A DNA stretch of 59,789 nt, the filler included, from Sphacelaria rigidula (lineage: Eukaryota), in NCBI GenBank assembly GCA_964200075.2. It is 8 parts of 8 records of this genome, joined end to end, with 100 filler letters (N's around TTAATTAATTAA, not from the genome) between each part and the next. Parts side by side here need not be neighbours in the genome. Positions count along the whole stretch, not along the records: positions 7,488 to 14,873 come from CAXNAA020015152.1; 7 more parts are not named here. The stretch is one strand, 5' to 3'. The translations under genes and the position numbers were made by a program. Below, piece by piece: positions 7,388-57,886 of the stretch (position 1 is the stretch's first letter; each line of letters starts with the position of its first letter). Below the pieces are notes generated by a model that was not told the origin of the DNA, searched no databases, and saw only the letters and a program-made list of their open reading frames with translations.

Positions 7388-7487
7388 NNNNNNNNNNNNN
7401 NNNNNNNNNNNNNNNNNNNNNNNNNNNNNNNTTAATTAATTAANNNNNNNNNNNNNNNNNNNNNNNNNNNNNNNNNNNNNNNNNNNN
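7388..7487. other. Artificial contig linker N44-TTAATTAATTAA-N44 (also 14874-14973, 22360-22459, 29846-29945, 37332-37431, 44818-44917, 52304-52403)
   Basis: Identical 100-nt spacer with stops in all six frames, separating equal-length contigs. Confidence 0.99.
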
Positions 7488-8327
7488 AATGGTCTCATGA
7501 CTATGGCATGCATGATCATACACCCCCCCCCCCGAAAAACTCCAGGGTTAAAAAAAGGGACATAGGGTCTCGGATTGTTTTTTGGGCACTTTCGGATGAC
7601 ATTCAAATCACATTCAAAGCGGTGAGCGATTCAAAAACCATTCATCTGAAATACTGTATGCAGTAGCAGACTCTCACAAACAAGCCAAGGCTGGCAGCAC
7701 GCGGGTGAAAGAGCTATCTTTGATTCTGGATCTCGTGTGATGAAACGCCAAACCTGGCATATATCCGCAATATCACTTCGAGGTGTAGTGACCACGAGTA
7801 CTGTACTGTACTGTCTGTACCCGTATTGTTGTCAGGTGCAGACCCCAATCCTACTGTCATTTTGTTCGTAATCATGTAATCATCTTTGTTATAATATCAC
7901 CATACTAAAAATGGTATAAACATGCCAGTAACGGCAAACTTCAAATAAACTGGAGACGTCCTCACCAGTTCCAGTTAAACTCCGCTTCCAGTTTAACTGC
8001 CAGTGCAAACTGGTCCAGTTTACAGCCCTACATACTACCGTAGTGTAGCAGCATAGCACCACCATACTACGTGCGCACACTGACAAAACATTGATGCATG
8101 AACTATTATATAATGTGATATAGCACCCACTGGCGGAGCCGTGTTTGCCTCTCCTGTGTTTCTCATGTTCCCGGACGTGAACCAAGTATCACCGCTGAGA
8201 AACAGTCGACTATAGAAAATCTACGCTCTTGTTACTCCCTGACATGATTTACATTCATCTGCAAAGTGTTATCCTTGTCCGTTGTTCGCGCGGGTGCGTG
8301 TGTACATGTGTGCCCTCCCGTGAGCAG

Positions 8328-8434
8328 TATGAGTGGGCTGGCTCAGTTTGTTACCTCGAGGGGTCTCGGGACGCTGCAGGAATGGTGCGAAGTAGGGTAC
8401 AAGGCTGTGTTGACAGCAGATGAAGAGCTTTCGG
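8328..8434 (+). CDS. nrdJ: Class II (AdoCbl-dependent, monomeric-type) ribonucleotide reductase, exon (MSGLAQFVTSRGLGTLQEWCEVGYKAVLTADEELS)
   Basis: gagcag acceptor, gtaaga donor, phase 2/1. Splices in frame to the KPSGTVS exon. Confidence 0.8.
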
Positions 8435-9460
8435 GTAAGAAAATGGTTTTTCACGTGATTCTTTTCCCCTAGACGAGTGCCATTGGTCACGGAGTCATCT
8501 CACACGGAGCGAAAAGAAGGCCAAGCTCTGTTTTTTCATGTATTAGGCAAGTTCCCTGCACTGCAAAAAGATACCTTTGTCACCGAGATATCTTGGACGG
8601 CATGCAGTTATCGGTGGTGTGTTGCCGACGCAGTTCACGAGAAAATCAATGCTCAACCCCCCCCGCCCGGTTATGTAATCCGCAACTTTATGTTACTCGT
8701 CGCCGCTTGTTCTGTGATGGGTCCAACCATCGCTCATGGTTTTGTACGGCCATGAGACATTTTGATTCAAAAGCCCCTGTTTTTTTCAAGGTAAAATTTG
8801 ATTGGGCGACGTTGTAGTCAGCAATGCGGAGTGTACACGTTGGAAATGCTGATGCACAGAGAGAGACTGCCAGGCTTTTCAAAGTTGCCTGAGAGTGGCG
8901 TCACATGATTTGCAGCGTACTTCTTCAAAAGCATGTTGTGTGCATCTTCGAGACCTATGTTCGGGACCGATTAGCACGTTGTTGCCCACTAGTTAGCCCC
9001 ATGTTTTGTTTCACTCCAGATTATGCAATATCTCTTTATGCGAGAGTTTCTTCGCTAAATTCTTCTTGAGTTTGACAGTGCACGTTACAGATGCTCGTTG
9101 AAACGGCCATATATCCGCACGCACACACTAACATCTCCGACCTCGCGGCAAGTGTCACACTGGATCTTGTTGCTGTATATCGACTTAAATTCTGAAATCC
9201 ATCCCATCCTGCCTCTTTTCAAGAGGAGTACATTTTGAGTTTGAGCTTGTCGTGCTAGTTCGAATGTGTACTCGACCCTCGGACATGGACACAGACAAGC
9301 GTTCCATTACGCCACCTCTTGTTCTGTTTTGTTTGATCTTGCGGTTGTTATCAAGAGCATTCGAAAAACAAAATGTGACTAAGTTGCGTTCCGCTCCGTT
9401 CTGGATGCTTGCGTACTGTGCTCCCAAACGCCAAATGCAAATTCAAAACGCCCTGAACAG

Positions 9461-9544
9461 CTCGGTTTGGCATCCCGACCTCCATCAAGACAACCAGCAT
9501 TAAGCCCAGTGGAACGGTGTCCCTGCTTGCCGGTGCAACTCCAG
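9461..9544 (+). CDS. nrdJ: Class II ribonucleotide reductase, exon (ARFGIPTSIKTTSIKPSGTVSLLAGATPG)
   Basis: ctgaacag acceptor, gtcagt donor, phase 1/1. SIKxTxxKPSGTVS is the monomeric class II RNR signature. Confidence 0.9.
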
Positions 9545-10829
9545 GTCAGTTTTGAGGGAATGGGAGGAGGTGATAATATCTTCCAAACGCCGTGAGGGTC
9601 ACATGTACCGTATCCCACAGTACTCTGGGCTCCAGTAGGTCTACTGAGTACCCAAGCGTACCTGGAGTATCCGCTGCCGGAAGTGCTGAGCCGTTCCCGT
9701 TCCCGTACCCGTACCCTAGCCTACCCTGACCGCCTTTGATGCCTTCAATCGCCCTTTACCACAGGAAGATGGAGTATTTCTTCTATGAGCAACGCAGCCC
9801 GCCCTACCCCCATACTGGCCTGACCGTTTACTATGAAGCATGGGGTATAAAGCCTTCTGCAGTTCATTTCCATTCGCATACACTCATGTTGTTCCCCCGC
9901 TGTCGGGCGCGACGGAAACGAGAGAGCGTTCCAGAGTTTGCCAGTACAGTGCCGCCTGGATCCGCAGCCGCAAAATTCGCTTCCAAAAATGGTGTTTGTG
10001 TACCAGTTCAAACTCTCGTCAGGGCACGAGTGTGTCCATGTAAAAGTGACTGTCCCATGTGTGGAGCGGAAGGCACGCCCGAGTTGAACGGATGTTCCAC
10101 GCTTGAACGTATGCATTGGAAAATCGGTGTAAGCTCTGCCTTTTGTTCCAGCATACCGTATGTACGTCCGCCTAGTGCATTAGACGGCTCTCATGTGGCG
10201 AAAGGTGTGTTGCTCTTTGCCCGGTGTGAACTCGAAGCCCTCTTGGAGAGTAAACCCCTCGTCCGGAGATAGGATGCGTATGTGCATGTATTTGGTTTGT
10301 CAGGTTTGTCATCCCCCACCATGCCACACGCCTTTGGTTGGGGCTGGCATCATTGATCGCAATGATGCTTCCCCGAACGAAATATCCATGGTGCTATCAC
10401 AGCTTCTGGTGATCATACCAGTCGGCATCATGGGACATTTCATGCAACTTTTGTTAAAACACCGTGCACTTGATATGGTCAAGCATCCACGAGAGGTTCA
10501 TGGTGAACCGAATGATTCATGAAACCCTTCTCTGCCCCATTTTTGTGGAGTGCTATCATCATCATTGTTCTGCGGTGGGACGCAGAACCGTCGCCGTCGT
10601 GTGCGTGCGTGTTTCGAGCGTGTACTTGTGCTTTCGCATTTTCGAGCAGTGCGTGGCCACTCGAGAGCTCCACAATCTAAAGCCGAACTCACACCCTGTT
10701 GCTAGCTCTAAGCCTTAAACCCACACGTTCGGACCTCGAGTGTTCGTCAGTGAGGTATACTCATACCCTGCGTCGGTAGGCTATACATATGAGGTATGTG
10801 CAACATCATAATACTACAATCGAAGTGGC

Positions 10830-11440
10830 GTGCGTCCCATGGCAGCCTTGTATCATGGCAGTATAGCGGACGTGTCACAATTTTTTCATCATGGTACCAC
10901 CATGGGGAGTATAGCCCATGGACGTGACACAAGCCATGATAGCTGCATGAAAACATTATGGTACCAGGCGTTCATGACACTCACTGCCATGACAGTGCCG
11001 TAACCATTCACGAGAGCATCACGACGCTACCGCGGTCTGCCACGGTACTCTCGTCGTATACTTACTCATCGAGGGTACCGTGGGAAAAAGGGCCGCCACG
11101 GTACCCACGCACTTCCATCGGAGGATCTACCATTGCAGCTCATGGGGCCACACCCTGATGCATTGCAACATTGTCAGTCATTCCTCGTAGAAACGGATGT
11201 TACACATACTTAGATAAGCCGTTTTTACTTTTTTGGTGTTCGCCGGGGGAGTTTGGTGCAGATAGGCTATTGCGGCAAGTACCGAAATCGTTAAGAACTT
11301 TTTTTTCAGTGTTGACCATTCCAGACGCACCATGAATCGAATAAGTTCTGCAATATTTGAGTTCGGCGTTGTACACGCGCCATGGGCATGTCCTGCCATC
11401 GCCGTGGATTTCCATTGAAGCGAACACGTAAAACGTTCGC
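10830..11440. repeat. CCATG/CATGG-rich degenerate repeat in the RNR intron
   Basis: Recurrent ccatg/catggc motifs. Boundaries are approximate. Confidence 0.4.
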
Positions 11441-11704
11441 GGCAAACTGAAAAAGCAGCCAGAGAGCTACCTCGTATCGACTATTAATAAATCAACGCCA
11501 GCAATCAGACATTTTCTTGAAGGTGCTCTAGAACGGCACGATAATGCTGGTATATATTTTTTCCGTTTGAATCAGTGTGGATTGCTTGTCGTGAGAGGAG
11601 CCGATGCTATATTTACGCACTGTATGCTCCCGGTAGTTTATTGTACGTTGTGAAGCAACTCTGTTGGTTCCTCCGCTCCCGCCGTCCACGGTTCATGTCG
11701 GCAG

Positions 11705-11798
11705 GAATGCACTATCCGGAATCGAGGTTCTACCTGAGGAGGGTGAGGATTTCGTCGGATTCGGACGTGATCGAGCCGTTGAGAGATGCTGGATATAG
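11705..11798 (+). CDS. nrdJ: Class II ribonucleotide reductase, exon (GMHYPESRFYLRRVRISSDSDVIEPLRDAGY)
   Basis: cggcag acceptor, gtgagc donor, phase 1/2. GMH...Y.RR.R follows KPSGT in RTPR-type enzymes. Confidence 0.88.
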
Positions 11799-12347
11799 GT
11801 GAGCTCCTTAACCTTACGGTAGGCAACGGACCTTCCCATGCATGTGCTCGCTGTTTTTGTCGGGCGTTCGAACCCCTTCCTCCTCAGGACGAGTCTGTTG
11901 TCTGAAAGGACCAATCAACCAGTTTTTCCCCCCCGGTACCTTCTCCGATTTTTAGTATCCAGCATTAAATCAGCAGCGTTCAGTCCATGGTTTTCGTCTT
12001 ACCGGATAACGGGAAAGCTTTTGTCGACAAACATGAGATGAAATTTGATGATGAAAGTCGACGGGCTGCGGGGGCGGATGATCCGCTGCCTGCTAGCACA
12101 GCGCAAAGCAGGTACTGCCGAAGAAATGGATCAGTTAAGTCGTTGAGGGTACGGGCCCGTCCGAAGGAAAGGGGGGGAGTTTGAAAGTTGAGAAAAGAGC
12201 AATCCGGTTGCGGCATTATTCTGGATCATAATGAACGGGGCTCTATGTGCGTATGAGCAGGCGATAAGTTCTTGTCCACCGTTCTTGTGCTTGATTGAGT
12301 AACTGAATTTCGCCCATCGACTGATCCCCCGCAAACGTAGCCTTTTT

Positions 12348-12399
12348 CATTGGTCATCGGTCATTGGTCATTGGTCATTGGTCAGTGGTCATTGGTCAT
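12348..12399 (+). repeat. Heptamer tandem (TCATTGG)n, about 7 copies
   Basis: Read directly. Confidence 0.9.
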
Positions 12400-13380
12400 G
12401 AGTCATGAGGTGGAAATGACGGAGGTAAATTAACGAAACGCCTGCTGAAGGAAACTTGAGAAAGGGAGTGAAAATAAAAATGATGAACGAGAATAAATAG
12501 AGTGACGTGTAATATACGAAAGGCTGCTTTAACAAGTACGGAGTACTGCCGGTCCCCAGAAAAGCCCCAACAGCCCCCTGCGAGGCCTTCAGGTAAAAAC
12601 ACCCTACCAAAGGCAAGACTGTAAAGGCAGGTTGCAAATCAGTCAGCTGAAGACCGACCCTTCAGGCCGGAATTATCAGCCGCGAACATGTCCCAAGAAC
12701 CAGACGGGAACGCTGATACGAAAAAAGAAAACAAGAAAACAGAAGAACTGGAGAAAGAAAAGGAGTTGACCATGAATGGACACGCAACACAACTAGGAAA
12801 CAGAGCTAGAGGAACAACCGAAAAGATCAAAGGTATCACTTTCTGTGTATTTCCTCCTCCTGATCCCTAGTCAGTGACAGGGTGGGGCACTATCCCCATT
12901 CTTTCCAACTGGAAACCTCATGGGCTGCTGTCACCGCTGTTGTGCCAACGGTGGCAGTCCTCCTATTGCCGGCTGTCGTGGACAGGAGTGGCCGGGGTGT
13001 TCGCATCGCCATGCCTCCTCAAGCTCCCCCGCCCCCTTCCCGCCACCCAGATGTCATGTGTTCGGTGACAGTGACCCAACGTCATGGGCGTTTTGACCTT
13101 AACATCGTACACGAACCGCCCTGTTTGTTCTCCCTTACGTGAGATAGCCGCTAGGACAGACAGGTTCTCCTGAAGTCGATACCCGCGTGTTTCGAAAGCC
13201 GGTCAACCTGCTTGGTGCCTGGTGCAGCCAATCGTCCCCTGATGATCCACTGCGAGAGAAGCGCTTCGTCCTGCGGGACAAGCGCGCCCGCGGGCCGAAG
13301 TTGACGGGTGCGCATGATCGTCTCGATACGTTCGCATATGGTCATCTCGGGCACGGTCTTGTACAAACCATCGAATCATT

Positions 13381-13490
13381 CACGGGTGGCCACTGGGGTG
13401 CCTGTTACCTTCAATTTGGACGTTACAGACCTTGTGCAACATCTGTAACGTCCAAATTTGAGGATGCAGGCACCCCAGTGGCCACCCGTG
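13381..13490. mobile_element. Palindromic MITE, CACGGGTGGCCACTGGGGT TIR, 2-bp TSD (TT); CACTA/CMC-like
   Basis: Perfect terminal inverted repeat. The same TIR occurs at 21994-22286. Confidence 0.85.
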
Positions 13491-16400
13491 TTGTGCCCAA
13501 CGCGCGACCCTTCCTGCGGAACCTCTTGCGAAAGCCAAGTGCTCACGGCGCTGATGCTGCGCGTGATACCGATGGCAGTGTTTGCGTTTTGGCTGACGTC
13601 ATCGCCAGGATGTGTCCACTTGGCGGTACTGTATGCTTGTACAGTTTGCCCACCTCGTCGATGTGCAGTTCGATCTCTGGAGAGCTGAGTATTGACCATA
13701 TATGCGTGGCCGTCGTCTTGCTCTCTGGTACCGTGTGTCCGGACTCTTGGTAGACCACCACTACCACCACCATCATCCTACACAGCACGCCTGGACACCT
13801 CGAGATTTACGCCTCCGTGATTCGCGCACAGCGGTTTCCCACATCGCGCGTTGCACTCTCTCCAGTGGTGTCTTGTTCGGGCTTGCCATCCTCGTGCTTC
13901 GAAGCCGGGTCTAGATAGCCGCGCAGTGATGTACAACCACGTCAATCACTTCTCCGCCGAAGATGTTGCAGAATAGCGGAGGCGATACGTACGTTGGTAA
14001 GTCTGGCGTCAGACGCGATCACTCCATGCCTCACCATGCTTCACTGGTGAACCCGTGGTTTTCAATTTAACACGTAGTTTGAAGACTTTATGGATTTCTT
14101 GGCCCATTGCTTGCTGCACAAGAGATGGAAGCAACACTGATCATGGCGGGGTGAGCTGCAGGGGTGGCGAGGCAACGTCTTTCTCAAGTATCATATTATG
14201 ATGTTCACTCACTCCCCACAGGTTTCTCAGGTGATGATACTCGAAATAATCGGAAAATTTCGGGGAAACATCTCGGAAAGATCTCACCGGTCCCGAGACG
14301 AAGATAGCCGAAAGAGTCGAAATAATTTCAGATAATATTCTCTGACAGGTATCATCAATCACCAGCCCAAGGCCGCCCGAAGAATCAATTACACTCGCAA
14401 TGATACATAGGCACACTGAGTCCATACACCGTGTCCTACAGGCCGTCACAAATGGGAGAGTCATCCAACGAACACAGCCTTGCCTGGGGCCCTGGCGGAC
14501 GAAAAAACGCTTTGATACCTCGACATCATCCAGCTGTGCCCAAGCTCGTACGTCATCGTGAAAGGCATTCATCACCTTGAACGCCCAAGGTGGGGCTGTG
14601 AAGTGAGCCAGCGAGCACTTCCCACAGTTGCGTGCGGTCGATAAAGTCGTGCGCCTTCTAGCAAAGCGCATGTTCGCCGAGGTGCTGCTCGCCCGCCCCA
14701 ATTCGTGCGGTTGGCGTGCGATGAACAGTATGATGATGGTGGGTTGTTGGCGCCGAAACCCACTTGTTTTGTTCTCGAACATTTTTCGGGGTGAATTTTT
14801 GCATACGTCGGACGAGCCATCACTCGCCGAGACGAGTGCACTCGTTGATGTTTTTCGAAAACACAACGAGCATNNNNNNNNNNNNNNNNNNNNNNNNNNN
14901 NNNNNNNNNNNNNNNNNTTAATTAATTAANNNNNNNNNNNNNNNNNNNNNNNNNNNNNNNNNNNNNNNNNNNNGAAAGGGATGCGTGGTCAATGGTCAAA
15001 CGACTAAGGCAAGCAACCAATGAGTACGCCCCCTCCCCTGAGCATCTAGTGTTATTTTGTTTTTCTTGTCTTCGAGGTCTCTTTACGCGATGAGAGGACT
15101 GAAGATTTAGTCCAGCCTCCTACATGTTTGGAATTTTGATGACTTTCTCTGGATGTGTTTGTTGTTGCTACTGCTCAACCCCCCGCCGCCAGCCAAGAGA
15201 GCTCGCCGCACGGGAGTATTCCCTTACATCGTCTTGTTGCACGGGTCCTTAGTTACACCGTGTACTGCTAATGATACCGCCCTTATTGTAGGCCGTATTG
15301 ATGTCCAACGACTGTTTCAGGTTGAAGTGAGTTACTGCATCTCGACAAATCATCTGGTTGTGTTCGCTTGTTTGTTCTACCCCTATCCCGTGGCGCAGCC
15401 TGGTCAGCTGGCGGCACGGGTGTGTTCTCTTGCGTCGTTCCGTTGCTCGTGGTCGAGTGTTCCCCCGGGAATGACCACTCTTACCGCCCTTGTTGTAGGC
15501 CGTATCTCCGCCGGACGATTGCTTTGAGTTGGGTATTGCGTCCTGACGAATTGATCTTTTTTCAATTGACATCAAGTTTTGCTCATAACACGCGATAGTT
15601 GATCCGCCGGGCTGAACGAAAGGTTCTCACCAATGACACTTGGCTTTTTACCCTGAGTATCGTCTTGGATGGGCTCGTGCCCACTCGCGCAGGATTTTGA
15701 ATTTCGCACTTCGGGCACACGACACCTGAACATCGGCTGCATCCCCGCTTTCATCTCCCTGTTGCTGCGTAGCCCCCCCCCCATCGCATTGTACTTCACG
15801 GTCAACGCCTTTTTCAAGACAGATTTGATACTTCAAACGCCCTTCCACGGAAACGAGCGGGGTGCCACTCTCGCTGTACGCGACGAATGTGTCGGGACGG
15901 AGTCGAACAAAGACGTGGAGCTCACTTGGATCTACGCCCGACCAGAGCAGTTGCTGCGATGCTATGCCGCAACTGCGCTTTCCCTCCCCTCTTCCCGGAT
16001 TATCTGGCATTCCATCCTTGTTCCGTTGGTAGATGAAGTCTACGCGTGCGCACCATTTAGTGCTTTACTTTGTAGATGGACTTGCGTGTGTGTTGTCTTC
16101 TTCGACATAGGTGCGTGAGTGTCACGTAGATACAACGTTTTTCTTTTTGTGGATTGAACGTTTGATGCTATATCGGTTCGCAGCGATGCTCGCCTTTTAG
16201 AGGTGTGGGAGATTGGTTTTTTTTTCTCCGCTTCCTGCTTTTGTACGAGTGTAGTGTAGAAGAGCCCTTTCTCGTTGAATTTTGAAGTTCCTCGGCGCAA
16301 TTACATTGCACCGAGGTGATGATGATTCAACTGCATAAGGACTCGACTAGGATGGGCTAGTGTGATGAAGCTCAGAGGCGTCGCAAGATATACGCTGTGC

Positions 16401-22286: not shown

Positions 22287-24707
22287 TGCTGAAGTCCATG
22301 TGCCCGTGATGGGAGGAGTCCACATGGCGATCTAATCTTGAGTGACAGAGGTCTATAATNNNNNNNNNNNNNNNNNNNNNNNNNNNNNNNNNNNNNNNNN
22401 NNNTTAATTAATTAANNNNNNNNNNNNNNNNNNNNNNNNNNNNNNNNNNNNNNNNNNNNTATTATTATTATTACAATTATTATTACTACCCTATTTATTG
22501 ATGACGTAATGTCTCCCCGCTCCAACGCTGCAATCAAGTCGGCCGCGTCCGCTTTTCCCATACTGTAGCCAAGTCACAAATGATCATTTTCGAAACAGTA
22601 TTTTATACACGCTTTTACCATCGAATTGTTGGACTACGCCTCGATCATCCACCACGGAACTATTTTCGTCGCTTGCGGCACCATACCCTGGGAACGTATC
22701 AACCATTCTATTGTGGCCTGCGGCAGCATCGCGGAGCCCTGCTTGGCTCTCTCTTGCTTGGCTCTCTCAACAAATTGAAAAAGAGCACCTACGATAAACA
22801 GCGCTCACCACGACACAGATTACAAAACAGCACTACCCAGGAGCATCACCCACGCATCATCAACCGCGTCGTGTTTGCTTCAACAGAACAACATAACAAC
22901 ATATCATGAAGACTGTATGATATCTGCTGCTGTTGTTTCTTGGTCATGTCGTTCACCATACCGTGGGAAGATACATCGAACGGTATTACAGGTTTTTGCC
23001 ATTCAAATATTGCAACGGTCGATTGTGGCTTGCAGCAGCATCACCTCCTGCTTGGCTCTCTCAACAAATTGAAAAAGAGCACGTGCGATACAGTGTTTAC
23101 CACGACACAGATCATGAGTCCAAAAGGGTATGACGACTGTAACTTACGCTTCTGTTTGTTGCGATTGTTATGTGGGTGTCTGCCAGTTTGTTCGGGTGAG
23201 CTCTTGACCGAATAGCATGCTTCTTTTATTACGTTGCTATCTCCACACCCCTCTCCGACTGCGGAGTAATCATCTGTGGGAGAAGTTGTCGGCACTACGC
23301 GGTACTTACTGGCTGTACTGTTGTAGAGAACGTGACATTTACTGTTCGCTGTGGCCATCGACTGCATCATACACCGACAACACTCCACGCACCCAAGAGA
23401 TGATAAAATATGAGTCCACCTTCGCTACACGCTGCCAAGACGGACAGTAAATCCAATACGAAACTTCTCACCGTTTGTTCGCACCGCACACATTGCCCAC
23501 AGACTCTGCAGCTCGCATCGAACTGTCCCAAGATGAGCGCGATTTTCTTTACTGTCACGGTTGGTATTCACCAAACACTTGAATATAGCTTTGCGCCTGG
23601 AGGTGGGGTCCCTCACTACAGCCCTTCCTGCGCCCGCGTTATCGCTCATTCTCCCACTATGTGTCACTGCCTATTGACGCTACACTCTTGGCTCGTGGCG
23701 TGGTGTGGTTATTCCTTCATGGCTGGCGATTGTGTACTGCATGTACCATCCATACGTATGTTCCATCATGCTTCATCATCGCTTCCTATTTTGAGACCCG
23801 TGGTTATGATTTCATCATCGCTTCCGACGGAAAGCGATTTCCAATACAAAAAAATGTGGTGATTGCAGCGTTGTGGTTTTCGAAGCCTTGTAGAGTTCAA
23901 GGGCAGGTAGAGTAGAGTATGTACTTTTGAGTATGCTCCTGCTCGACGAACGCATACGAGAGAAGTATTGACCATAATATCCTTCTTGCAGGCAAAAACA
24001 AACGAGCGACTCTTGCAAGAGTCGGACAAATAACGAGTCGTCTGGAAATTACTTGGTTTTAGTATAATTGATTCGAATAGTACAAATTAATCCCTAAGCT
24101 TTGTTTTCAGCGTTGCAACCCAGGAACACGCAGCCCAGACACGTGGAATGACGCAAAAGTTGCGTGGATACCCCTTGAACCAGCGGTCAATTTTCTTCCC
24201 CCTTTTGGGCAATCAGGCCAAAGAAATCGTGGATTTGGTTATTCGTAGTCGTGATGATTCGTTTTAACCGTGGACTCTTGATATTATTTTCACACCAACT
24301 ACAAGGCCGGAGCGTCTTCGCTATTTTTGAGTTGGGTGCTTCGAGCCCAAATACACCCACTGGGTTATAGCCCTTTCCAGGGCACGTCCCGCGCTCAGCA
24401 GGAAAAATCGAACCATGAACTATTATTTTTTCTGCAGGTTTTGAGGCTCGGCTTGAAAAGCACGTGGAAATAAGGATCAACGCCGGAATGTCTCACTGGT
24501 GCGGAGGTGTATGTGGCGTCTGAAAGGAACAGCGTTACCTTGACGCATGATTTCTCCCTGTCACGGATGTAGTCTAAAATCAAAATCAAGTGTATCGCAA
24601 GAAACGAAGGAAAAGGGGCGATGGTTCAGGATGGTTAGTAGAGTGTCGCCAAACAGCCCGGACACTTTTTGGAGGCTAGCAACCCCCCCGCGTTTAGCAC
24701 CCCTACA

Positions 24708-27608: not shown

Positions 27609-29081
27609 TCAGGGGCGGATGATGCATCTCGCGACGCAGTCGAGGAAGATGCTGACGGTATCGGGGACGGGATCGGGGCCGAAGAGCCGGAGAAGATCGG
27701 CGGGGATTTCGGTGGCGATCGGTGCATCGGCGGAGTGGACGGATCCGTCGGCGGCGGTAGTAACGGCTGAGTCGGCGGAGTCGGCGGGCGCGGCGGCGGC
27801 AGGATCGGCTGAGTCAGCGGAGTTTGCTGGCGCGGCGGCGGTGGCGGCGGCTCGAACTCCACTGTGTGATATGTCGGCGGGAGCAGCGGTGTGGCAACGG
27901 CGGTGGTGGTGCTGCCATGAACCTCCTCCTCCCCGACGAGCGGCGTTTGGATCCTCCCCTCCGGACCCTCCCCCCCCGGCGAGCGGCGTCCCGTGATGCT
28001 GCTCTGCTGACGGCGCGGCGGCGGCGGCGACGGTACTGGAATGGGTCTCCTCCCCGCCGACGATCGGCGTTGCCGACGACTGCAGTGGCACACGCGGTAC
28101 CGTCCAGACAACGTTGTTGGTGTAGCAGACAGCACCGGTAGCAGCCTTCAGGACCTTGACCGTCGATGAAAGAGGATTACTGTCATTATTGAGGTAATGG
28201 CAGGCCACGGACTGAGCATCCATCTTGCCTCGGTGGTTGACCCGCATCATGCCGGGTTGCAGAAACGGCACAATCTGTAGCGGCGGGCGCTTGCCGGTGA
28301 ACACTTCATACCGCGACAGTCTTCCCGGGTTCGCCGTAGTAGCGGAACGGTTGAACCCGTCCGCTGCCCACACCGCGGCCTCCAGCCACAGGCGCTCCAT
28401 GTTCTCCCCCAGGTGAGGTATGTTGTCGAAGCGGCACTCCGGGAACAGACGTCGCGCTTCAAGACGGGCGGGATGGCCCCCCTTCATGACTCTCCAAATT
28501 GCATTTTCCACCACAGCGTTGTGCTTCGGAGTGTCAGGGGCAGTGTACTCACGACGAATCGTTGCATCGTCGCAGAATGCGCCGAAATCGTTGGAGGTGA
28601 ACTCGGCCCCGTTGTCCATGCGAAAACAACCGGGGGTACCGATGGCGCTGACGTCGGCAATGAAACGTTTCACCTTCGCCAGCGTGTCAGACTTACGTGC
28701 GAGGCCATAAAATATCATGAAGCGTGACTTGCTGTCGACGCAGCCCAGCATATGGGTTGATGCGCCCAAAGTACGAGGGTATGGACCGGTGAGGTCGAGA
28801 CGTACCCCGCCAAGTACAGTCATTGCCCTCGTTCCCAGTCTTCGCGGAATACCTGCTCGCTGTCCCTTCGCTTCCAAACACCCAGCACACGGCGCCAGTA
28901 CCCCCGTCAATGAAATGCCCTGTTGTTTTTCAGTTTCTCGGAGTAACGTCTCATGAATGTGGGGGAGGGAAACGTGGAAAAAAATGATGTCGACTTCTTG
29001 CGTTGGTTTTCCAACTGAAAATGGGTCAGGGCTGGGGGCAAGAACAGCAAGGGCCGTCCCGGTTTTAGCCAAAACTCCCAT
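27609..29081 (-). pseudogene. Copia integrase (zinc-binding remnant plus rve core), frameshifted into a P/A-rich tail
   Basis: H..H...CAGC, DLTGP, VDSKSR, RMDNGAEF, YTAPDTPKHNAVVE. Confidence 0.93.
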
Positions 29082-29089
29082 TCCTTCAC

Positions 29090-29780
29090 TCAGAAAACGC
29101 GGGAAAAAATCTTGGGGGGGGTCGTGCCAAATCCAGCCATCAGGGCTTCATCCTTTAATACACTCAAGTCTGGACAGTGAAGCCCTCGGACTGCACGGAG
29201 GGAAGCAACACCATTCGTGGGAGCCGTTACAACGCTTGCCGGTGAAGCGGACTGGAAACCAACACTTGAAGTTACCACGTTCGCCGGAGGAACGGACTGG
29301 ACACGAACGCTTGGGGGAGGGGCAGTTACAACGCTTGCCGGTGAAGCGGACTGTACCCCAACACTTGAAGTTACCACGTTCACCGGAGGAACGGACTGGA
29401 CACGAACGCTTGGGTGAGGGGCAGTTACAACGCTTGCAGCTGGTACGGTAAGCGGGGGGTTCTCATATGTTGACGGTAAACGTGTGGCCCTTTGTGACGA
29501 AGACCGCTCATTGCGATCGAAGCGAGGCCTACCGTCAAACATGTGTACTCCTGTTTCAGTTAAGAGTACATCATGCTTCTTCTGCACTTGGTGCAGAGAA
29601 AAACGGTTGAAGTGTATTCCTTCAAGTACGTAAACGTCAGTCAGTTGCACGCAAAGTTCGGAGGACGCACCGATAGATGTCGGGGCGGTGGAATTTCCCA
29701 TGTGGAATTTAAGCTTCAAACTCCCTACTGCTCTGACGGGGAGAATTTTTCCGTTCTCCACAATCGCGTGCTCATTTCCT
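29090..29780 (-). pseudogene. Copia protease-adjacent beta-barrel region and linker
   Basis: NGKILPVRAVGSLKL...LTDVYVLEGIHFNRFSL. Truncated upstream by a family A module. Confidence 0.75.
29226..29437. repeat. In-frame 99-bp tandem duplication (about 2.1 copies) in copia pol
   Basis: GTTACAACGCTTGC recurs at 29226, 29325 and 29424. Confidence 0.9.
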
Positions 29781-31000
29781 CTGGGGGGGGGGGGCGTACT
29801 CATTTGTTTCTTGCCTTAGTCATTTGACCCTTGAAAAACGAACCCNNNNNNNNNNNNNNNNNNNNNNNNNNNNNNNNNNNNNNNNNNNNTTAATTAATTA
29901 ANNNNNNNNNNNNNNNNNNNNNNNNNNNNNNNNNNNNNNNNNNNNGCCTTGAGTCATGAAGAATGGTTGACTGCGTGGATTACAACTGATGTACGAACCG
30001 CATGATTTATTCATTGAGATGATGACTTTGAGTTGACTCACGAGTTGATTTGTCCTAACCGTGCACCATTTCGCCTGCCCCTGCTGCCTTCCTATTCTTG
30101 AGTTTAGCTACACACTCCTTTACTTCATCTGTGGTAAACCCTCTCTGCAACTCTTCTTTTTTTCTGCTGGGGGGGGAGGGGGCGAGCAGGTACTCAATTA
30201 CCGTTTTCCTTAGTCTTTTGACCAGTGACCACGCATTCCAATCGAGACGGAGCGCCATTCCTTCTCCCAATAGATATCTTCAACATTTAGGTGCTCACTA
30301 CTGTTCTATACACTACACAAAACATTTGACACATCTGATAAAATCACCACGTCTAAGTAGCGCAGAATTAATACCACTGTGAAAGCGCATGTCACACCCA
30401 TGACCGTGCACGCGGTGAACCCCTGCGGGCTAAGGTCAACCTGGTCAGGCCTTGTTTGCTCGTCGGGCACTCCGACATTTGACTGGTGAAAGACTTGCGA
30501 TATTTTCACTCATGGATACAGACGTTCAAAATCTGGGCGACCTACGCTCTCGCCCAATAATGGGCTCCACGTATGTGTATGTTTTATCAAAAACAAGTAG
30601 CAACACGATTTTGCAACATGTATTCTCCCAATTTCGAACCATAAGAGTTGGCAATTCCGAAAAACAACACGAAACTGCTCAAAATATACGCTCTTTTTCG
30701 ACCATGATATTTCTATTTTTGAGTCATGAGATGGTGAAAAGTGATGGTCTGGAGCCACATGCCAGATTCGTATGTGGAAATTCGTCATAATTTGCATCCG
30801 ATCATAATCCCCCCCCGCCCCGGGCGCGCGCCCTCGCGCCCGAAAATTCGCGCTTGGTGATTACGAGCCTGGCCCGGCGAAAACTGGGTGTGCTCAACCC
30901 GGTTTTGTAGGGGTGCGAGGTCAATGGTCATATGATTGCGGAATGTAAGATCACGAGTACACGCCCTCCCCCCCCAGCGCACGCCCTCTTCGTCTCTTAC

Positions 31001-36693: not shown

Positions 36694-38699
36694 CTGCTGT
36701 GGCGAAAGAGAATCTGTTTGGAATTCAGGAGTTTGAAGACGCGGGGAGACTAGTCAAAAATGCGGCGGGACTCTCTCCCCCGAAGACGAGCACACAACGG
36801 GACCACGGTTTCTACCGTACAATCGTAGATGCCGTAAGGCAATGAACGCAGTGCATCACAATCGAACGGCCCGACACAAAGCGCGTTGGGCCTTGTCGCC
36901 ATAGACGAAGCAATCAATTGAACGTATGAATTCGTCGAACACATTCGCCAACAGAAAATGCTTTCAGGAAAAAGAAATCGGCCGGCTATGCGAGGGGGGA
37001 GATCTGGCGGTCTTTTTTCATCTACAGTTGCGGCCCGCAATCGAGAAAAAAGTTAGTCAAGAAAATGAGGCTGGGCCTTACACGGAAAATAAGAAAAAAT
37101 GGGCTAAGAAACACACCTCAAACTGGGCGACAAGATAAGAAACATGAAAATAAGAAACAGCGCGAATACATACCTAAAATAGGCATAAAAAATAAGAAAC
37201 TAGGTGACTGGGGAGCCCCTTCCCAACTAAGAAACGTACAGTACCTTCTATATCTAGACCCCCCCCCCCCCCCCCCCCCCCCCCCTCCTTTTTTTTTGGG
37301 GTGGCGCCCCCTTCAGTTTCGTCTCTCTTCTNNNNNNNNNNNNNNNNNNNNNNNNNNNNNNNNNNNNNNNNNNNNTTAATTAATTAANNNNNNNNNNNNN
37401 NNNNNNNNNNNNNNNNNNNNNNNNNNNNNNNCGCCTGTTAGTAAATCGAGCTTATATTTTGCGCTTTTCCAAACGAGCTTATATTTCGCCCCAGAGGAAG
37501 TAGTATTTACGGTACTGGAAAGGCGAACCTACGCCTGTGACCACGTGTTCGAGAGATCGGGCTAATGTGCGGAAAAAAAATCTGACGACGATACATGTGT
37601 GAGATTACCCCCAGAACGAGGCCAGGTAAAGTGAATAATCCTGTATGTAGTCATCGGCCTCAGGCTGAACACAGTGTAAACGACACTTTTTTTACGCTTG
37701 CAGCCTTGGCTCTTGTTCTGGCATCGCAGTTTCATAATTGTGCACAACTCGCAGCTCAGTGCACAGCGAGAAGGGGCCACAGCTCGCGCAAGCCACCGAC
37801 TGCCAATTTTATGGGCGCTGGGCCAAAGAGCCTAGTCGCGCCCGTTGCGGCATCGTCGTTGTTGAGTTGTAAACAAAATCGCGAGGCAACTCCCATCTAC
37901 GGTCGTGATGGTCAACGCCATGCGACGTTGTTTATTTACGGCTCCCATCGTTTCTGGTCATAGCTCATGCTACGCCAGGAAGTGAATGGAACTTTGGGCA
38001 TCGAAGTGTAGATGGGAAGTAAGGTCGTTCCAGCCATACGAATTCTGGCCGGAGTGTTTTTGTCGTGCTTATCGTGCTCTCGAACAGGGCCTGGCACACA
38101 CATCAAACACAGTGGGGTAAGTTTTTAAGACATTTGACTATTTTTCCAGGTGTAACCGTTTTCATGCACCAGTGTTGTGTTCGACATGGCCAACCATGGA
38201 CCATGTCACGGTCACATTTACAAAAAACCCATGAGGTTGGTTCAGTTGATCTGAGAAATTTCAACTTAACCTGAAGTACCCGAGTGATTAATCGCAACTT
38301 TTTGCAGATCCAGATCGCCTGCGGCAAGAGTCGGCCTAAAGAGGATTGAAGTGACCGTCTTGATTGTTCTGTTTTTGGTGGAATGATCTACCTTACGCAG
38401 TGCGAACGCTCTGCGCCATGGCGTTGAGCTCGCCAAAAGATAGCGATGGGAGAGGATCTCTGTTCCTACCGTATATCGCGATACAAAAGTATGAGGGACA
38501 CGTGGCTGTTGAGGCTAAGGTACACAAGACCCAAGAAGTGTCCTGTCCCGCAATAATATCGTTCCGAAAGGAGGCCTGGAGTCCAAGGTGTTCGTTGCTG
38601 TGTAGTACACACAGCACAGCGCACCTGGTAGGAGCGTGGGAGTCGCGCATGGGGATGCTGCCGACCTAGCGGGTAACCTCACGCGGCGCAGACGTCACG

Positions 38700-44540: not shown

Positions 44541-45044
44541 GTAGTGAGGAATAGTACCCCAGAAAAACTCAAAAGATGAAACAACTACAGCCTGGTTCAC
44601 GGTGATCACCCAAAATTGTGTCATCAGTAAATGCCTTCCGCAATACACACCCAATAGTCGCATATATGGTATCATACTGACCGCAATGAAAATACGAAGA
44701 GGGTGACATAGCCAGATTTTTGTTTAAGGCCATAGCGGTGGCGCTGTGGACGAAAATGTGTCTCAGCCAATCAGCGACCTTCAAACTGTTCCGAGATCGA
44801 AATTACGAATACCAAGCNNNNNNNNNNNNNNNNNNNNNNNNNNNNNNNNNNNNNNNNNNNNTTAATTAATTAANNNNNNNNNNNNNNNNNNNNNNNNNNN
44901 NNNNNNNNNNNNNNNNNCGTACCTGGGTTGTAACGCTGAAATGAGTCATGGGATTCATTCATGACGAGTCAACTTATTATACTAAAACGAAGTAATTTCC
45001 TGACGAATCATCATTTGTCCCAACCGTGTAATTTTCCACGGGAA

Positions 45045-51590: not shown

Positions 51591-52403
51591 GGCCTGCAAC
51601 CTACAAATTCGCCCCCAGGCTGGCCCAACTCGTATACGTCGATGGTTGCCATATCTCCGTTCAATTGAACCGGTTTCGACGCCGGTTGTTGCTGTGCGGG
51701 CTCAAGAATCAGCGTCGTAACACCATTTCAAAACTCCAGCCGCAACGCCTTTGTAACGAGGTATTCAAATAAAAAGTTTACGCTAACTCGGCGCCGATTT
51801 GAGACAAAACAGAGCACATTTTGCTCACGGTGCCACATGCATCCCCCTTTTGCCCGAGAGTACTCGATCTGCCTGGTGTTGAGGTTAGGGTTACGATTAT
51901 GGTTAGAGTGATGGATCGACAAAAACAAAATGTGTTACAACCATGTTTTTTTTGCCGTGTACTCTCCCTCGATTATATATATTTTGCCGTTAGTACGGAA
52001 CAGTATTTCGCGCGACGCGGTTCGTATTTCTTGTAAAAAGAGGTACGGGATGGTCCGCCCGGGCCCCGCCTCTGCAGGCTTCCTTGTTTCAGATTTCCCG
52101 TCCCATAACGTCCCGACGATTTTACTGGGTCCCATTTTCTGTCTCCAGTCTTGCGCGAAAATAAAAACATTACCGGAATGCCCGCATAGAAGAACCATTC
52201 GACAAGCATTAGGATGATATCAGCCGTGAAGTAAACACAGTTCACACGAGAGGCGGGCCCGACACAAGGGAGTACCAGCCCAGCGCGTGGCATCGGTGGC
52301 AAGNNNNNNNNNNNNNNNNNNNNNNNNNNNNNNNNNNNNNNNNNNNNTTAATTAATTAANNNNNNNNNNNNNNNNNNNNNNNNNNNNNNNNNNNNNNNNN
52401 NNN

Positions 52404-55425: not shown

Positions 55426-55982
55426 AAACACTGCGAAAGATCCGTAAAAGGCCGATTGAACTACAGGAGACCTTCTGGAAGCCAAAAGGTCCCGGCGTGC
55501 GATCTCTCCGACTACCTTCCCACGTACAGGTGTCTACACAGAGTAGTAACAGCGAGTAAGCCGAAAATTGAACTGTCGCATAAAACAGGAACCAATTCCA
55601 AAATAGATCTACTGTCTGGAGTGCTGTTCAAAGATATTCTTAACAGAGCCTGCGCACCAGAGGCTGAACAACGTCAGATAGGAAGATAAAAAAAAAAGAC
55701 AAGAAAAACAAAGAAAGGAAAAGCCGATGGCAACGAGGAAGGAGAACGGGGAACTATGTTCACCCTTGGGTTCTAGTCAAGTGGCATCTTCATAGTTACA
55801 CAACAGGCAGGGCGTGTCTAGCTGGCGTACACACGACATGGCGCCATCAGCAAAAAACAGAATCTGTTCAGTGTGTCCTATATTCAACCATGAAAACATA
55901 CATTACCTTCTGCGACGTCTGCTCCCTCTTTCTTTGTTCCCGCTCTTTCCTCCGAAACTCTTCTCGCACGCTCACGACACAG

Positions 55983-56074
55983 TACGCTGGAGCAGCAACT
56001 ATTTGTCCCGAACACAGGTGGATTTTGGAAGGGATCGAAGCCGCCGATAGTTACCTCTTCAATCTTCACAAATG
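55983..56074 (+). CDS. Aromatic L-amino-acid (tyrosine/DOPA-type) decarboxylase, PLP-lysine exon (YAGAATICPEHRWILEGIEAADSYLFNLHK)
   Basis: acacag acceptor, gtgagt donor, phase 0/2. Matches the YAG...CPE...ADS..FN.HKW block of group II decarboxylases. Confidence 0.93.
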
Positions 56075-57886
56075 GTGAGTGAATGACGGAGCGACTGGCT
56101 TACTGGATGGGGTGCCCGGATCGATGAGAAACGAGCGGAACGGACGCAGACGCCGGGCAGATCCATATGTTCACCTTAGTTATACTCAATATATGTAAAT
56201 ATATATTTCAAAGCAAGTTACTCTTGGTATTACGCCGATTGGTATCATGCTGTAGTTTTTATTCTCGTGGGTATTAGTTTTCGATCAATCAACTCCAAAG
56301 TTTCAATTTGTCGTATTTACAGTAACCAATGGTTTCCGGTTGTCAAAATTATTATTTTTTTTATGAATTTACCTTACTTCTTGTTTCTTCTTTCACTATT
56401 TTGACAACTTTGATTTTTACTCTACAGTAATTGGCGGTCTAACTATTCAGGGGTGTTTTGGGGCTTTCCTCACGCACTACTCTTCGATAGAACTCGAAAT
56501 TGCTAGCGTCGGTAGATTCTGGTACAATAAACAGATCATCCTCGGAACAGTGCACAGGTCGGTGTTAGTTGGTGTTATCGGGCGATACGAGTAAATACCC
56601 CGCTTATCAAGATGGTGCTATTGACCATGAAACACTGCTTTTCGGCTCTAGTGCAATGAGTAGGTAGAATTAAAAAAAGTAAACCTGTAAATTTCTTGAC
56701 AAATATGATCGGGAAAGACTCGATCGACCGAAAATATCGAAAAGTAAGAATCTGGGCTAAAACGTGGCAGGGCCCCCGATGACCGGTCAGCCCGTAAGTT
56801 ACTCATCATTGAGTACGGATTATTTTTTTTCCTTGGAATGTGGAGCGGATACAAATATTTTCAGATCACCAATGTGATAAGCGGTGGCAAGCGAAAAGAG
56901 TTCAATATAATGGCCAGTTACGAAAAATCACAAAATGCCACAAAAGAAATAGCTAGACCCCCCACTACTGTACGGTGGGCCTTGGGATAAAGTCGCGTTT
57001 TTCTCCCGAGCCCCGAGCGTCCTTGACTTGGACCTCGTGAGACAGACGGATCTAGCTGTGGAGACTGCGGTATAGTAATATTTTGTTCCTACTTCAAGCT
57101 TCCGTCGTTTTAGTTCATATTTTTTTTTCTTTCCGAGCCGTGGACGGCGACCTTGTCCTTAACTTCCGCAGCTTGCGTTGTTACTGATCGACTGCGTCGC
57201 GTCGCGTACCTAGCGTTGCCTCCCTTTGTCGTGTTTGCGTGCTTGTGTATGTGAGAGAGAGAAAGTGTAAGTGTCTCCTTTTTGTTCCGTTTTGACGTCA
57301 CAGTGAGTAAAGCAGTTACATACGTACAGTAGCTCTGCACATTGATCGTTTCGGAAACAAAGCGACACCATTGAAGAAAGGAAACGTCGAACGTGCCAGT
57401 GATCGCTTGTAATCGACTGCAGAAAATACATTATATTAGTATATTTGTGAACCATGAAAGAGAAACGCCTGGGGGGATGTTTCTGGCGAGAAACCTCTGT
57501 CGAAGCTTGTACAATGGGACATGCAGTTGCCCAAAATTATTGAAATATAAAGTGCATACAGTGAATGAGTGGGTACACTTTGCTTGATCGAAGGAATCGT
57601 CGCGTAGTTGTTTCACCTACAGTGTCTTTTTTTTTTTCTCCCTGTCTCGCGTCTCATGTTTTGTCTGTTTCGTGTGTACGCGCCTTCCCCCTCGTATCCC
57701 CCCGCACCCCCGTCATGTTCCTCCGCTTTTTTATTGTTCTCACCGCTGTTATTTTTTCTGTCGCCGGGATATGGGCGGCGTCTCCATGGTCTGCCATAAA
57801 TTACATCGACTACAAAAACAACAACGACAACCGCAAAAACGATGCAACGATCACTATCACAACACTGGAACATGACAACACATTAG

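Follow-up and report, generated by a model that had tools for sequence, protein, structure and literature searches.

A class II ribonucleotide reductase gene in the brown alga Sphacelaria rigidula: splicing of three internal exons

Class II ribonucleotide reductases (RNRs) of the monomeric subtype have been described from several eukaryotes. Torrents is said to have described one from Euglena gracilis in 2006. Lundin et al. (2010) named Euglena, Dictyostelium, Monosiga and Phytophthora and read these genes as transfers from bacteria (PMC3019208); RNR II was also found in Dictyostelium and three Phytophthora species (Zhang et al. 2009; PMC2667541), and a clan of Dictyostelium, Stramenopiles, Euglena, Naegleria and Capsaspora was later recognized (Crona et al. 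2013; PMC3605638). In haptophytes, chlorarachniophytes and Chlamydomonadales, RNR-II is stated to be cytosolic (Dorrell et al. 2024; PMC11439496). The class II enzyme stands beside a class I RNR in Dictyostelium (PMC3605638) and in Nannochloropsis gaditana (PMC3566019); its role was called "enigmatic" in the former, perhaps hypoxia tolerance (Crona et al. 2013; PMC3605638), and was linked to anaerobiosis in Nannochloropsis (Jinkerson et al. 2013; PMC3566019). Here, we describe three exons of such a gene in a 59,789-base stretch of DNA from the brown alga Sphacelaria rigidula (assembly GCA_964200075.2), referred to as the window.

The exons very probably belong to the interior of a nuclear, intron-rich, transcribed brown-alga (Phaeophyceae) gene for a monomeric class II RNR of the RTPR/NrdJm type, orthologous to genes of Ectocarpus, Laminaria and Hapterophycus. 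The enzyme type and its presence in stramenopiles are already in print, and brown-alga orthologues are already in public databases. A literature search returned no paper describing a class II RNR in brown algae; the species table in the supplement of PMC11439496, which may list them, lay outside this search.

Exon structure and splicing

The window consists of eight pieces of 7386-7387 bases with artificial N spacers between them. The pieces are not necessarily neighbours in the genome, and genes run off every piece. All RNR exons were located within piece 2 (positions 7488-14873, 7386 bases; record CAXNAA020015152.1), and the evidence on the locus is confined to these 7.4 kb. A tblastn search of the whole window with the 843-residue protein of Laminaria digitata (P0002) gave 13 rows. 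Three of them are collinear on the plus strand and mark exons A, B and C, which cover residues 594-631, 632-658 and 658-692 of P0002, respectively; the remaining ten (E 0.11 to 9.8) are scattered over both strands, and the search revealed no exon beyond A, B and C in the 59.8 kb. The other exons are missing because the window is a composite of short pieces, not because the gene has decayed. Piece 2 is the middle of a gene, with three consecutive internal exons:

7488-8324, plus strand: 3' part of the upstream intron, more than 837 bases, cut by the start of the piece; 7488-8228 is high-copy
8325-8434, plus strand: exon A, internal, 110 bases; tblastn E 2.5e-12, 79% identity; AG acceptor, GTAAG donor
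8435-9460, plus strand: intron, 1026 bases, phase 1, single copy; GT..AG, removed in three of three RNA-like runs
9461-9544, plus strand: exon B, internal, 84 bases, bearing the K-P-S-G-T-V block; tblastn E 1.2e-9, 96% identity; TIGR02505 E 3.1e-6
9545-11704, plus strand: intron, 2160 bases, phase 1, single copy; GT..AG, removed in three of three RNA-like runs
11705-11798, plus strand: exon C, internal, 94 bases, opening with the G-M-H-Y-P-E block; tblastn E 3.7e-11, 77% identity; TIGR02505 E 0.011; GTGAGC donor
11799-14873, plus strand: 5' part of the downstream intron, more than 3075 bases, cut by the end of the piece

Exon limits were set by the splice joints in RNA-like contigs together with the flanking letters, which read ..gtgag, ..gaacag and ..cggcag before exons A, B and C and gtaag, gtcag and gtgag after them. 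Translation was done by eye and by script. The exon phases are 2/1/1/2, the frames agree across both joints, and the joined exons encode 95 residues free of stop codons and frameshifts. The three GT-AG exons with matching phases that a first-pass annotation had read from the sequence were thus placed and translated as claimed. The start codon it had set at 8328 has to be given up: the ATG occupies 8329-8331 and encodes a methionine inside the reading frame. An AG acceptor precedes exon A, whose first base is 8325, and the transcript extends further upstream. This first base, four bases before the ATG, completes a split cysteine codon.

Transcript evidence was sought in public sequencing runs. 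Among the 11 runs listed, four contained at least half of the words sampled from the stretch searched; runs X6 to X9, from one 2021 study, contained 6-10% of them (0.06-0.10), and the exons account for 288 of its 3701 bases (7.8%). The RNA-like runs X6, X7 and X8 and the DNA-like run X1, which has full coverage, were aligned to piece 2. One contig each in X6, X7 and X8 (2680, 2735 and 2856 nt) covers precisely exons A-B-C. The joints 8434/9461 and 9544/11705 were present in all three RNA-like runs, skipping 1026 bases (cut +1) and 2160 bases (cut +3), both with GT..AG ends. Not a single contig of X1 carries either joint; its contig 5 (5414 nt) runs unbroken across 7991-13404 with no difference. 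RNA-like depth was 24-63 in the exon bins and zero in bins 8723-9216 and 9711-11686; stretches of piece 2 uncovered in X6 to X8 were not counted as evidence. Apparently, the gene is transcribed and spliced at exactly the junctions predicted: GT-AG introns are present in the DNA and gone from the contigs whose RNA status is inferred, as expected of a eukaryotic nuclear gene.

Furthermore, the contigs of X6 to X8 extend past the exons, with 1795-1920 nt 5' of exon A and 469-649 nt 3' of exon C, and this 3' remainder was found nowhere in piece 2. The 30-letter contig ends carry on the orthologues' sequence in frame (RRIGC ahead of exon A, RLEPAATDPEG past exon C, in a standard-code reading by eye). 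The contigs are long enough for a frame of about 770-840 residues, as in P0002 and the Ectocarpus protein P0004, and the full-length frame would be intact. In X6, a separate 151-nt contig (record 10, depth 3.1) spans 8406-8556 and crosses the donor of exon A into the intron; it may derive from unspliced precursor or from a trace of DNA.

Family assignment and brown-alga relatives

A search against the hidden Markov model profiles of the RNR classes bore out the proposed class II RTPR/NrdJm identity. The best NCBIfam profile for the frame of exon B was TIGR02505 (RTPR), with 25.6 bits and an E-value of 3.1e-6 over profile positions 501-528; the dimeric class II profile NrdJ_Z (TIGR02504) reached only 9.0 bits (E 0.44) and PRK08665 8.6 bits. 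Exon C matched TIGR02505 with 14 bits (E 0.011) at positions 526-559, which adjoin those of exon B in the profile. A Pfam scan of the three exon frames, all short pieces, gave no RNR match. The same assignment was obtained with the whole Laminaria protein: P0002 scored 332.6 bits against RTPR versus 46.8 bits against NrdJ_Z, so that neither dimeric class II nor class I NrdA gave a better fit. Whole-protein scores against TIGR02505 were 314.3 bits for P0004, 274.7 bits for P0006 and 234.4 bits for P0001, a partial model. P0002 contains the Pfam domains RNR_Alpha, RNR-II_ins_dom and Ribonuc_red_lgC. The monomeric subtype is marked by an insertion domain which imitates the dimer interface (Pfam PF21995; PMC3019208), and this domain was matched by P0002 (46.3 bits) and P0001 (41.4 bits); in the S. 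rigidula gene it would lie outside piece 2.

Conservation was analyzed in an alignment (A1, n = 14) of brown algae, Tribonema, Chrysoparadoxa, oomycetes, Hondaea, Cafeteria, Balamuthia and five further proteins. With the K-P-S-G-T-V...G-M-H-Y-P block and the barrel residues, the fragment retains all 33 invariant and all 13 near-invariant columns. In 14 of 14 relatives, the NPC.E motif (N528, P529, C530 and E532) and the two barrel cysteines (C287 and C541) were present, as was a CxxxxC at the C-terminus. The motif and the barrel cysteines are predicted to lie upstream of piece 2 in the S. rigidula gene; the C-terminal pair C834 and C839, also invariant, would be encoded 3' of it.

A homologue search with an 85-residue frame around exon C retrieved brown-alga proteins; the best match had 85% identity, and a protein of the source organism itself was not among the returns. 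Over the 95 residues, which align without a gap, identity was 86% to Hapterophycus canaliculatus (P0001), 83% to Laminaria digitata (P0002) and 81-82% to four Ectocarpus proteins (P0004-P0007). All of these are deposited as "unnamed protein product" in public protein sets, and the source organism is none of these species.

A quick IQ-TREE analysis comprised 39 rows, namely the fragment and 38 proteins picked by hand from 121, 18 of them with an organism name. The fragment fell in a seven-row clade with all six brown-alga proteins (SH-aLRT 96), and it was sister to the other six with a support of 90 on 95 columns only. This clade is nested with Tribonema, Chrysoparadoxa and two further rows (97). 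The branching follows that of the hosts, which favours vertical inheritance in this section of the ochrophytes. Two apparent paralogues in Ectocarpus sp. 6 (P0004 and P0006) were considered and dismissed; with end branches of 0.0078 and 0.0061 they look like alternative models of one gene.

Additionally, all five full-length-like brown-alga models (P0002, P0004, P0005, P0006 and P0007) share a conserved N-terminal extension of about 140-170 residues with an arginine-rich start, and the block R.LWT....T.HLG......LSQ is common to Laminaria and Ectocarpus. Bacterial-type proteins of about 665 residues are without this extension; basic leaders of lesser length are seen in Hondaea, in Balamuthia and in two eukaryote-like proteins. 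The 1795-1920 nt that precede exon A in the contigs leave room for such an extension. It might combine a mitochondrial or plastid targeting signal with a new domain, a reading that we consider unlikely. If it were true, the class II RNR would make deoxynucleoside triphosphates inside an organelle and not in the cytosol. A mitochondrial enzyme would sit where the cofactor adenosylcobalamin is made in human cells (PMC11439496). No paper on a class II ribonucleotide reductase with mitochondrial targeting was found in the literature search.

Introns, repeats and other elements

The first-pass annotation had pointed to kilobase-scale introns with host-type repeats. The introns of 1026 and 2160 bases stand; the repeats belong to the incomplete flanking introns, and the two complete introns are single-copy, as indicated by a flat X1 depth of 68-73 across both. 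All high-copy stretches (7488-8228, 13169-13662 and 14651-14873) lie in the flanking introns, and summed X1 depth in the upstream-intron repeat was 3,706 to 203,753 as compared to 68 over the exons. A single match of 47 bases is the only repeat common to piece 2 and the other seven pieces. The remaining features are as follows:

About 12347-12406, plus strand: (TCATTGG)n heptamer microsatellite, 7.6 copies, in the intron after exon C
14144-14872, minus strand: open frame of 243 codons, antisense in the downstream intron; diverged reverse-transcriptase remnant
7388-7487, 14874-14973, 22360-22459, 29846-29945, 37332-37431, 44818-44917 and 52304-52403: artificial spacers, N44-TTAATTAATTAA-N44

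The spacers are strictly periodic, with 44 N on either side of TTAATTAATTAA and a period of 7486. The 243-codon frame gave no Pfam match of its own and had no hit among longer proteins. A phmmer search returned 34 relatives at E ≤ 0.001, one of which, of 165 residues, is 94% identical; PF00078 (RVT_1) was present in nine of ten relatives scanned, and the frame is therefore the remnant of a retroelement. It agrees with the host-type repeats of the first-pass annotation, albeit in a flanking intron. An Atlas lead to RVT_1 clusters (score 0.87-0.88) points the same way.

Two further coding traces were observed in other pieces of the window. An open frame of 512 codons (27612-29147, minus strand) matched the integrase core rve with E 2.3e-6, below the Pfam cut-off, and probably belongs to a long terminal repeat retroelement or a similar element. 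In piece 8, a match to PF00282 (about 55983-56075, plus strand, within the open frame 55668-56075; E 1.6e-6, 27.6 bits, profile positions 237-267) is probably an exon of a pyridoxal phosphate-dependent decarboxylase. Rfam at gathering threshold gave no match in the whole window.

Alternative explanations and comparison with known enzymes

Several observations weigh against the assignment to a functional monomeric class II RNR. The RNA status of X6 to X8 is a guess of the run search, and none of these runs is recorded as RNA; all three come from one study and are represented by Logan contigs, not reads. Beyond the exons these contigs are known by their 30-letter ends alone, so that a disabling mutation elsewhere is possible. 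Of about 800 residues the window holds 95; it reaches neither the start codon nor the catalytic cysteine, and both the monomer-type insert and the C-terminal cysteines fall outside it. Exon A alone matches no RNR profile in NCBIfam or Pfam. Finally, none of the four brown-alga orthologues reaches the curated equivalog cut-off of TIGR02505 (340.05 bits), a profile that is tuned to bacterial members, and several of the orthologue gene models are gapped.

The locus could be a transcribed remnant or partial duplicate, that is, a pseudogene or a gene whose product no longer reduces nucleotides, the alga relying on its class I RNR alone. Only a fragment is visible, the tblastn search found no further exon in the window, and in Dictyostelium the class II enzyme's role was called "enigmatic" (PMC3605638). 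However, the absent exons are explained by a piece of 7386 bases between artificial spacers, all 46 conserved columns are kept, the 95 codons are free of stops and frameshifts, and the contigs keep the frame to either side and have the length that a complete reading frame needs; hence, we rate decay as quite unlikely. A class II-like paralogue that works with a different cofactor or substrate, in place of a true RTPR equivalog, is very improbable. Such a paralogue would fit the scores just below the NCBI cut-off and the conserved extension of about 150 residues that bacterial-type proteins do not have; against it stand the conservation, in all 14 aligned relatives, of the NPC.E motif, the barrel cysteine pair and the CxxxxC at the C-terminus, the nearly end-to-end alignment of P0002 with the structurally solved RTPR of Lactobacillus leichmannii (PDB 1L1L), and the fact that published work counts enzymes of this clade among the class II RNRs (PMC3019208, PMC3605638).

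Contamination, or a recent and unassimilated bacterial, archaeal or viral insert, retains practically no probability. It draws on relatives in prokaryotic metagenome-assembled genomes (MAGs) with up to 59% identity (146 confirmed stretches, 80 of which were kept) and on 1222 matching phage records, all below 60%. The two GT-AG introns are nevertheless removed in the RNA-like contigs, and the 95 codons are spread over 3.5 kb, whereas in 75 of the 80 prokaryote-labelled loci kept, the whole match takes up about 1.9-2.0 kb, the size expected if a gene of about 670 codons has no interruption (2.9-3.3 kb in the other five). Moreover, the nearest proteins are brown-algal, the tree follows the hosts (brown algae, then Tribonema and Chrysoparadoxa), and the next intron carries a retroelement remnant. 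The first-pass annotation had argued against a contaminant, and rightly so: bacterial contamination is ruled out because the junctions occur in three of three RNA-like runs and the introns are unbroken in DNA-like X1. This explanation is already refuted, unless the spliced contigs are assembly artefacts.

For the monomeric class II RNR preferred here, a mechanism may be proposed by homology with the L. leichmannii enzyme. Adenosylcobalamin would give rise to a thiyl radical on the cysteine of the NPCxE motif, the conversion of ribonucleotides to deoxyribonucleotides would need neither oxygen nor a di-iron subunit, and the C-terminal cysteine pair would be re-reduced via thioredoxin. The 95 residues encoded here would form part of the barrel, including the K-P-S-G-T-V loop, which presumably corresponds to the loop that binds phosphate in class I enzymes. 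The class II enzyme would act beside a class I enzyme and depend on vitamin B12 (B12) supplied by bacteria. S. rigidula would thus be one more brown alga among the eukaryotes that, besides having the usual class I enzyme, can form DNA precursors by a route that depends on B12 but not on oxygen or iron, which bears on the dependence of seaweeds on B12-producing bacteria. The ideas that the gene may couple DNA precursor synthesis to B12, spare iron or serve under hypoxia repeat suggestions in print for other eukaryotes (PMC3566019, PMC3605638). The value of the present analysis lies in a gene model confirmed with spliced transcripts and not in a discovery; the gene is an ordinary orthologue in a lineage where it is expected.

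Among solved structures, 1L1L, the prototype of monomeric class II RNRs, is the only one matched by P0002 (E 2e-88, residues 6-704 of the 739-residue chain). Its K-P-S-G-T-V...G-M-H block is letter-identical. Cys119, Cys408 and Cys419 of 1L1L align with Cys287, Cys530 and Cys541 of P0002; the functional roles of these three cysteines in 1L1L are presumed here. The bacterial gene differs in being intronless and in encoding a protein without the N-terminal extension of about 150 residues found in brown algae. About one third of the aligned letters are identical between 1L1L and P0002 (an estimate by eye), and Dictyostelium NrdJ is 33% identical to the sequence of the structure (PMC3605638).

The best prokaryote-labelled genes showed 52-59% identity to P0002 and come from MAGs labelled as DPANN archaea, Pelagibacter, Flavobacteriales and Rickettsiales, labels which, for those on short contigs, may reflect mis-binning; MAGs of Hydrogenedentota showed 43-46%. 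RTPR-type genes in DPANN MAGs (Nanoarchaeota, Woesearchaeota and Pacearchaeota as binned; L003-L015 and others) were 52-57% identical, about as close as those of oomycetes. Identity was 30-42% among the phage matches listed, with actinobacteriophages the best at 41-42%. None of the prokaryote-labelled or phage genes is as close as the stramenopile proteins, of which those of oomycetes share 59-63% identity with P0002. The open reading frame of Dictyostelium nrdJ is intronless (PMC3605638), whereas the brown-alga gene described here is broken up by introns 1.0, 2.2 and over 3 kb in length.

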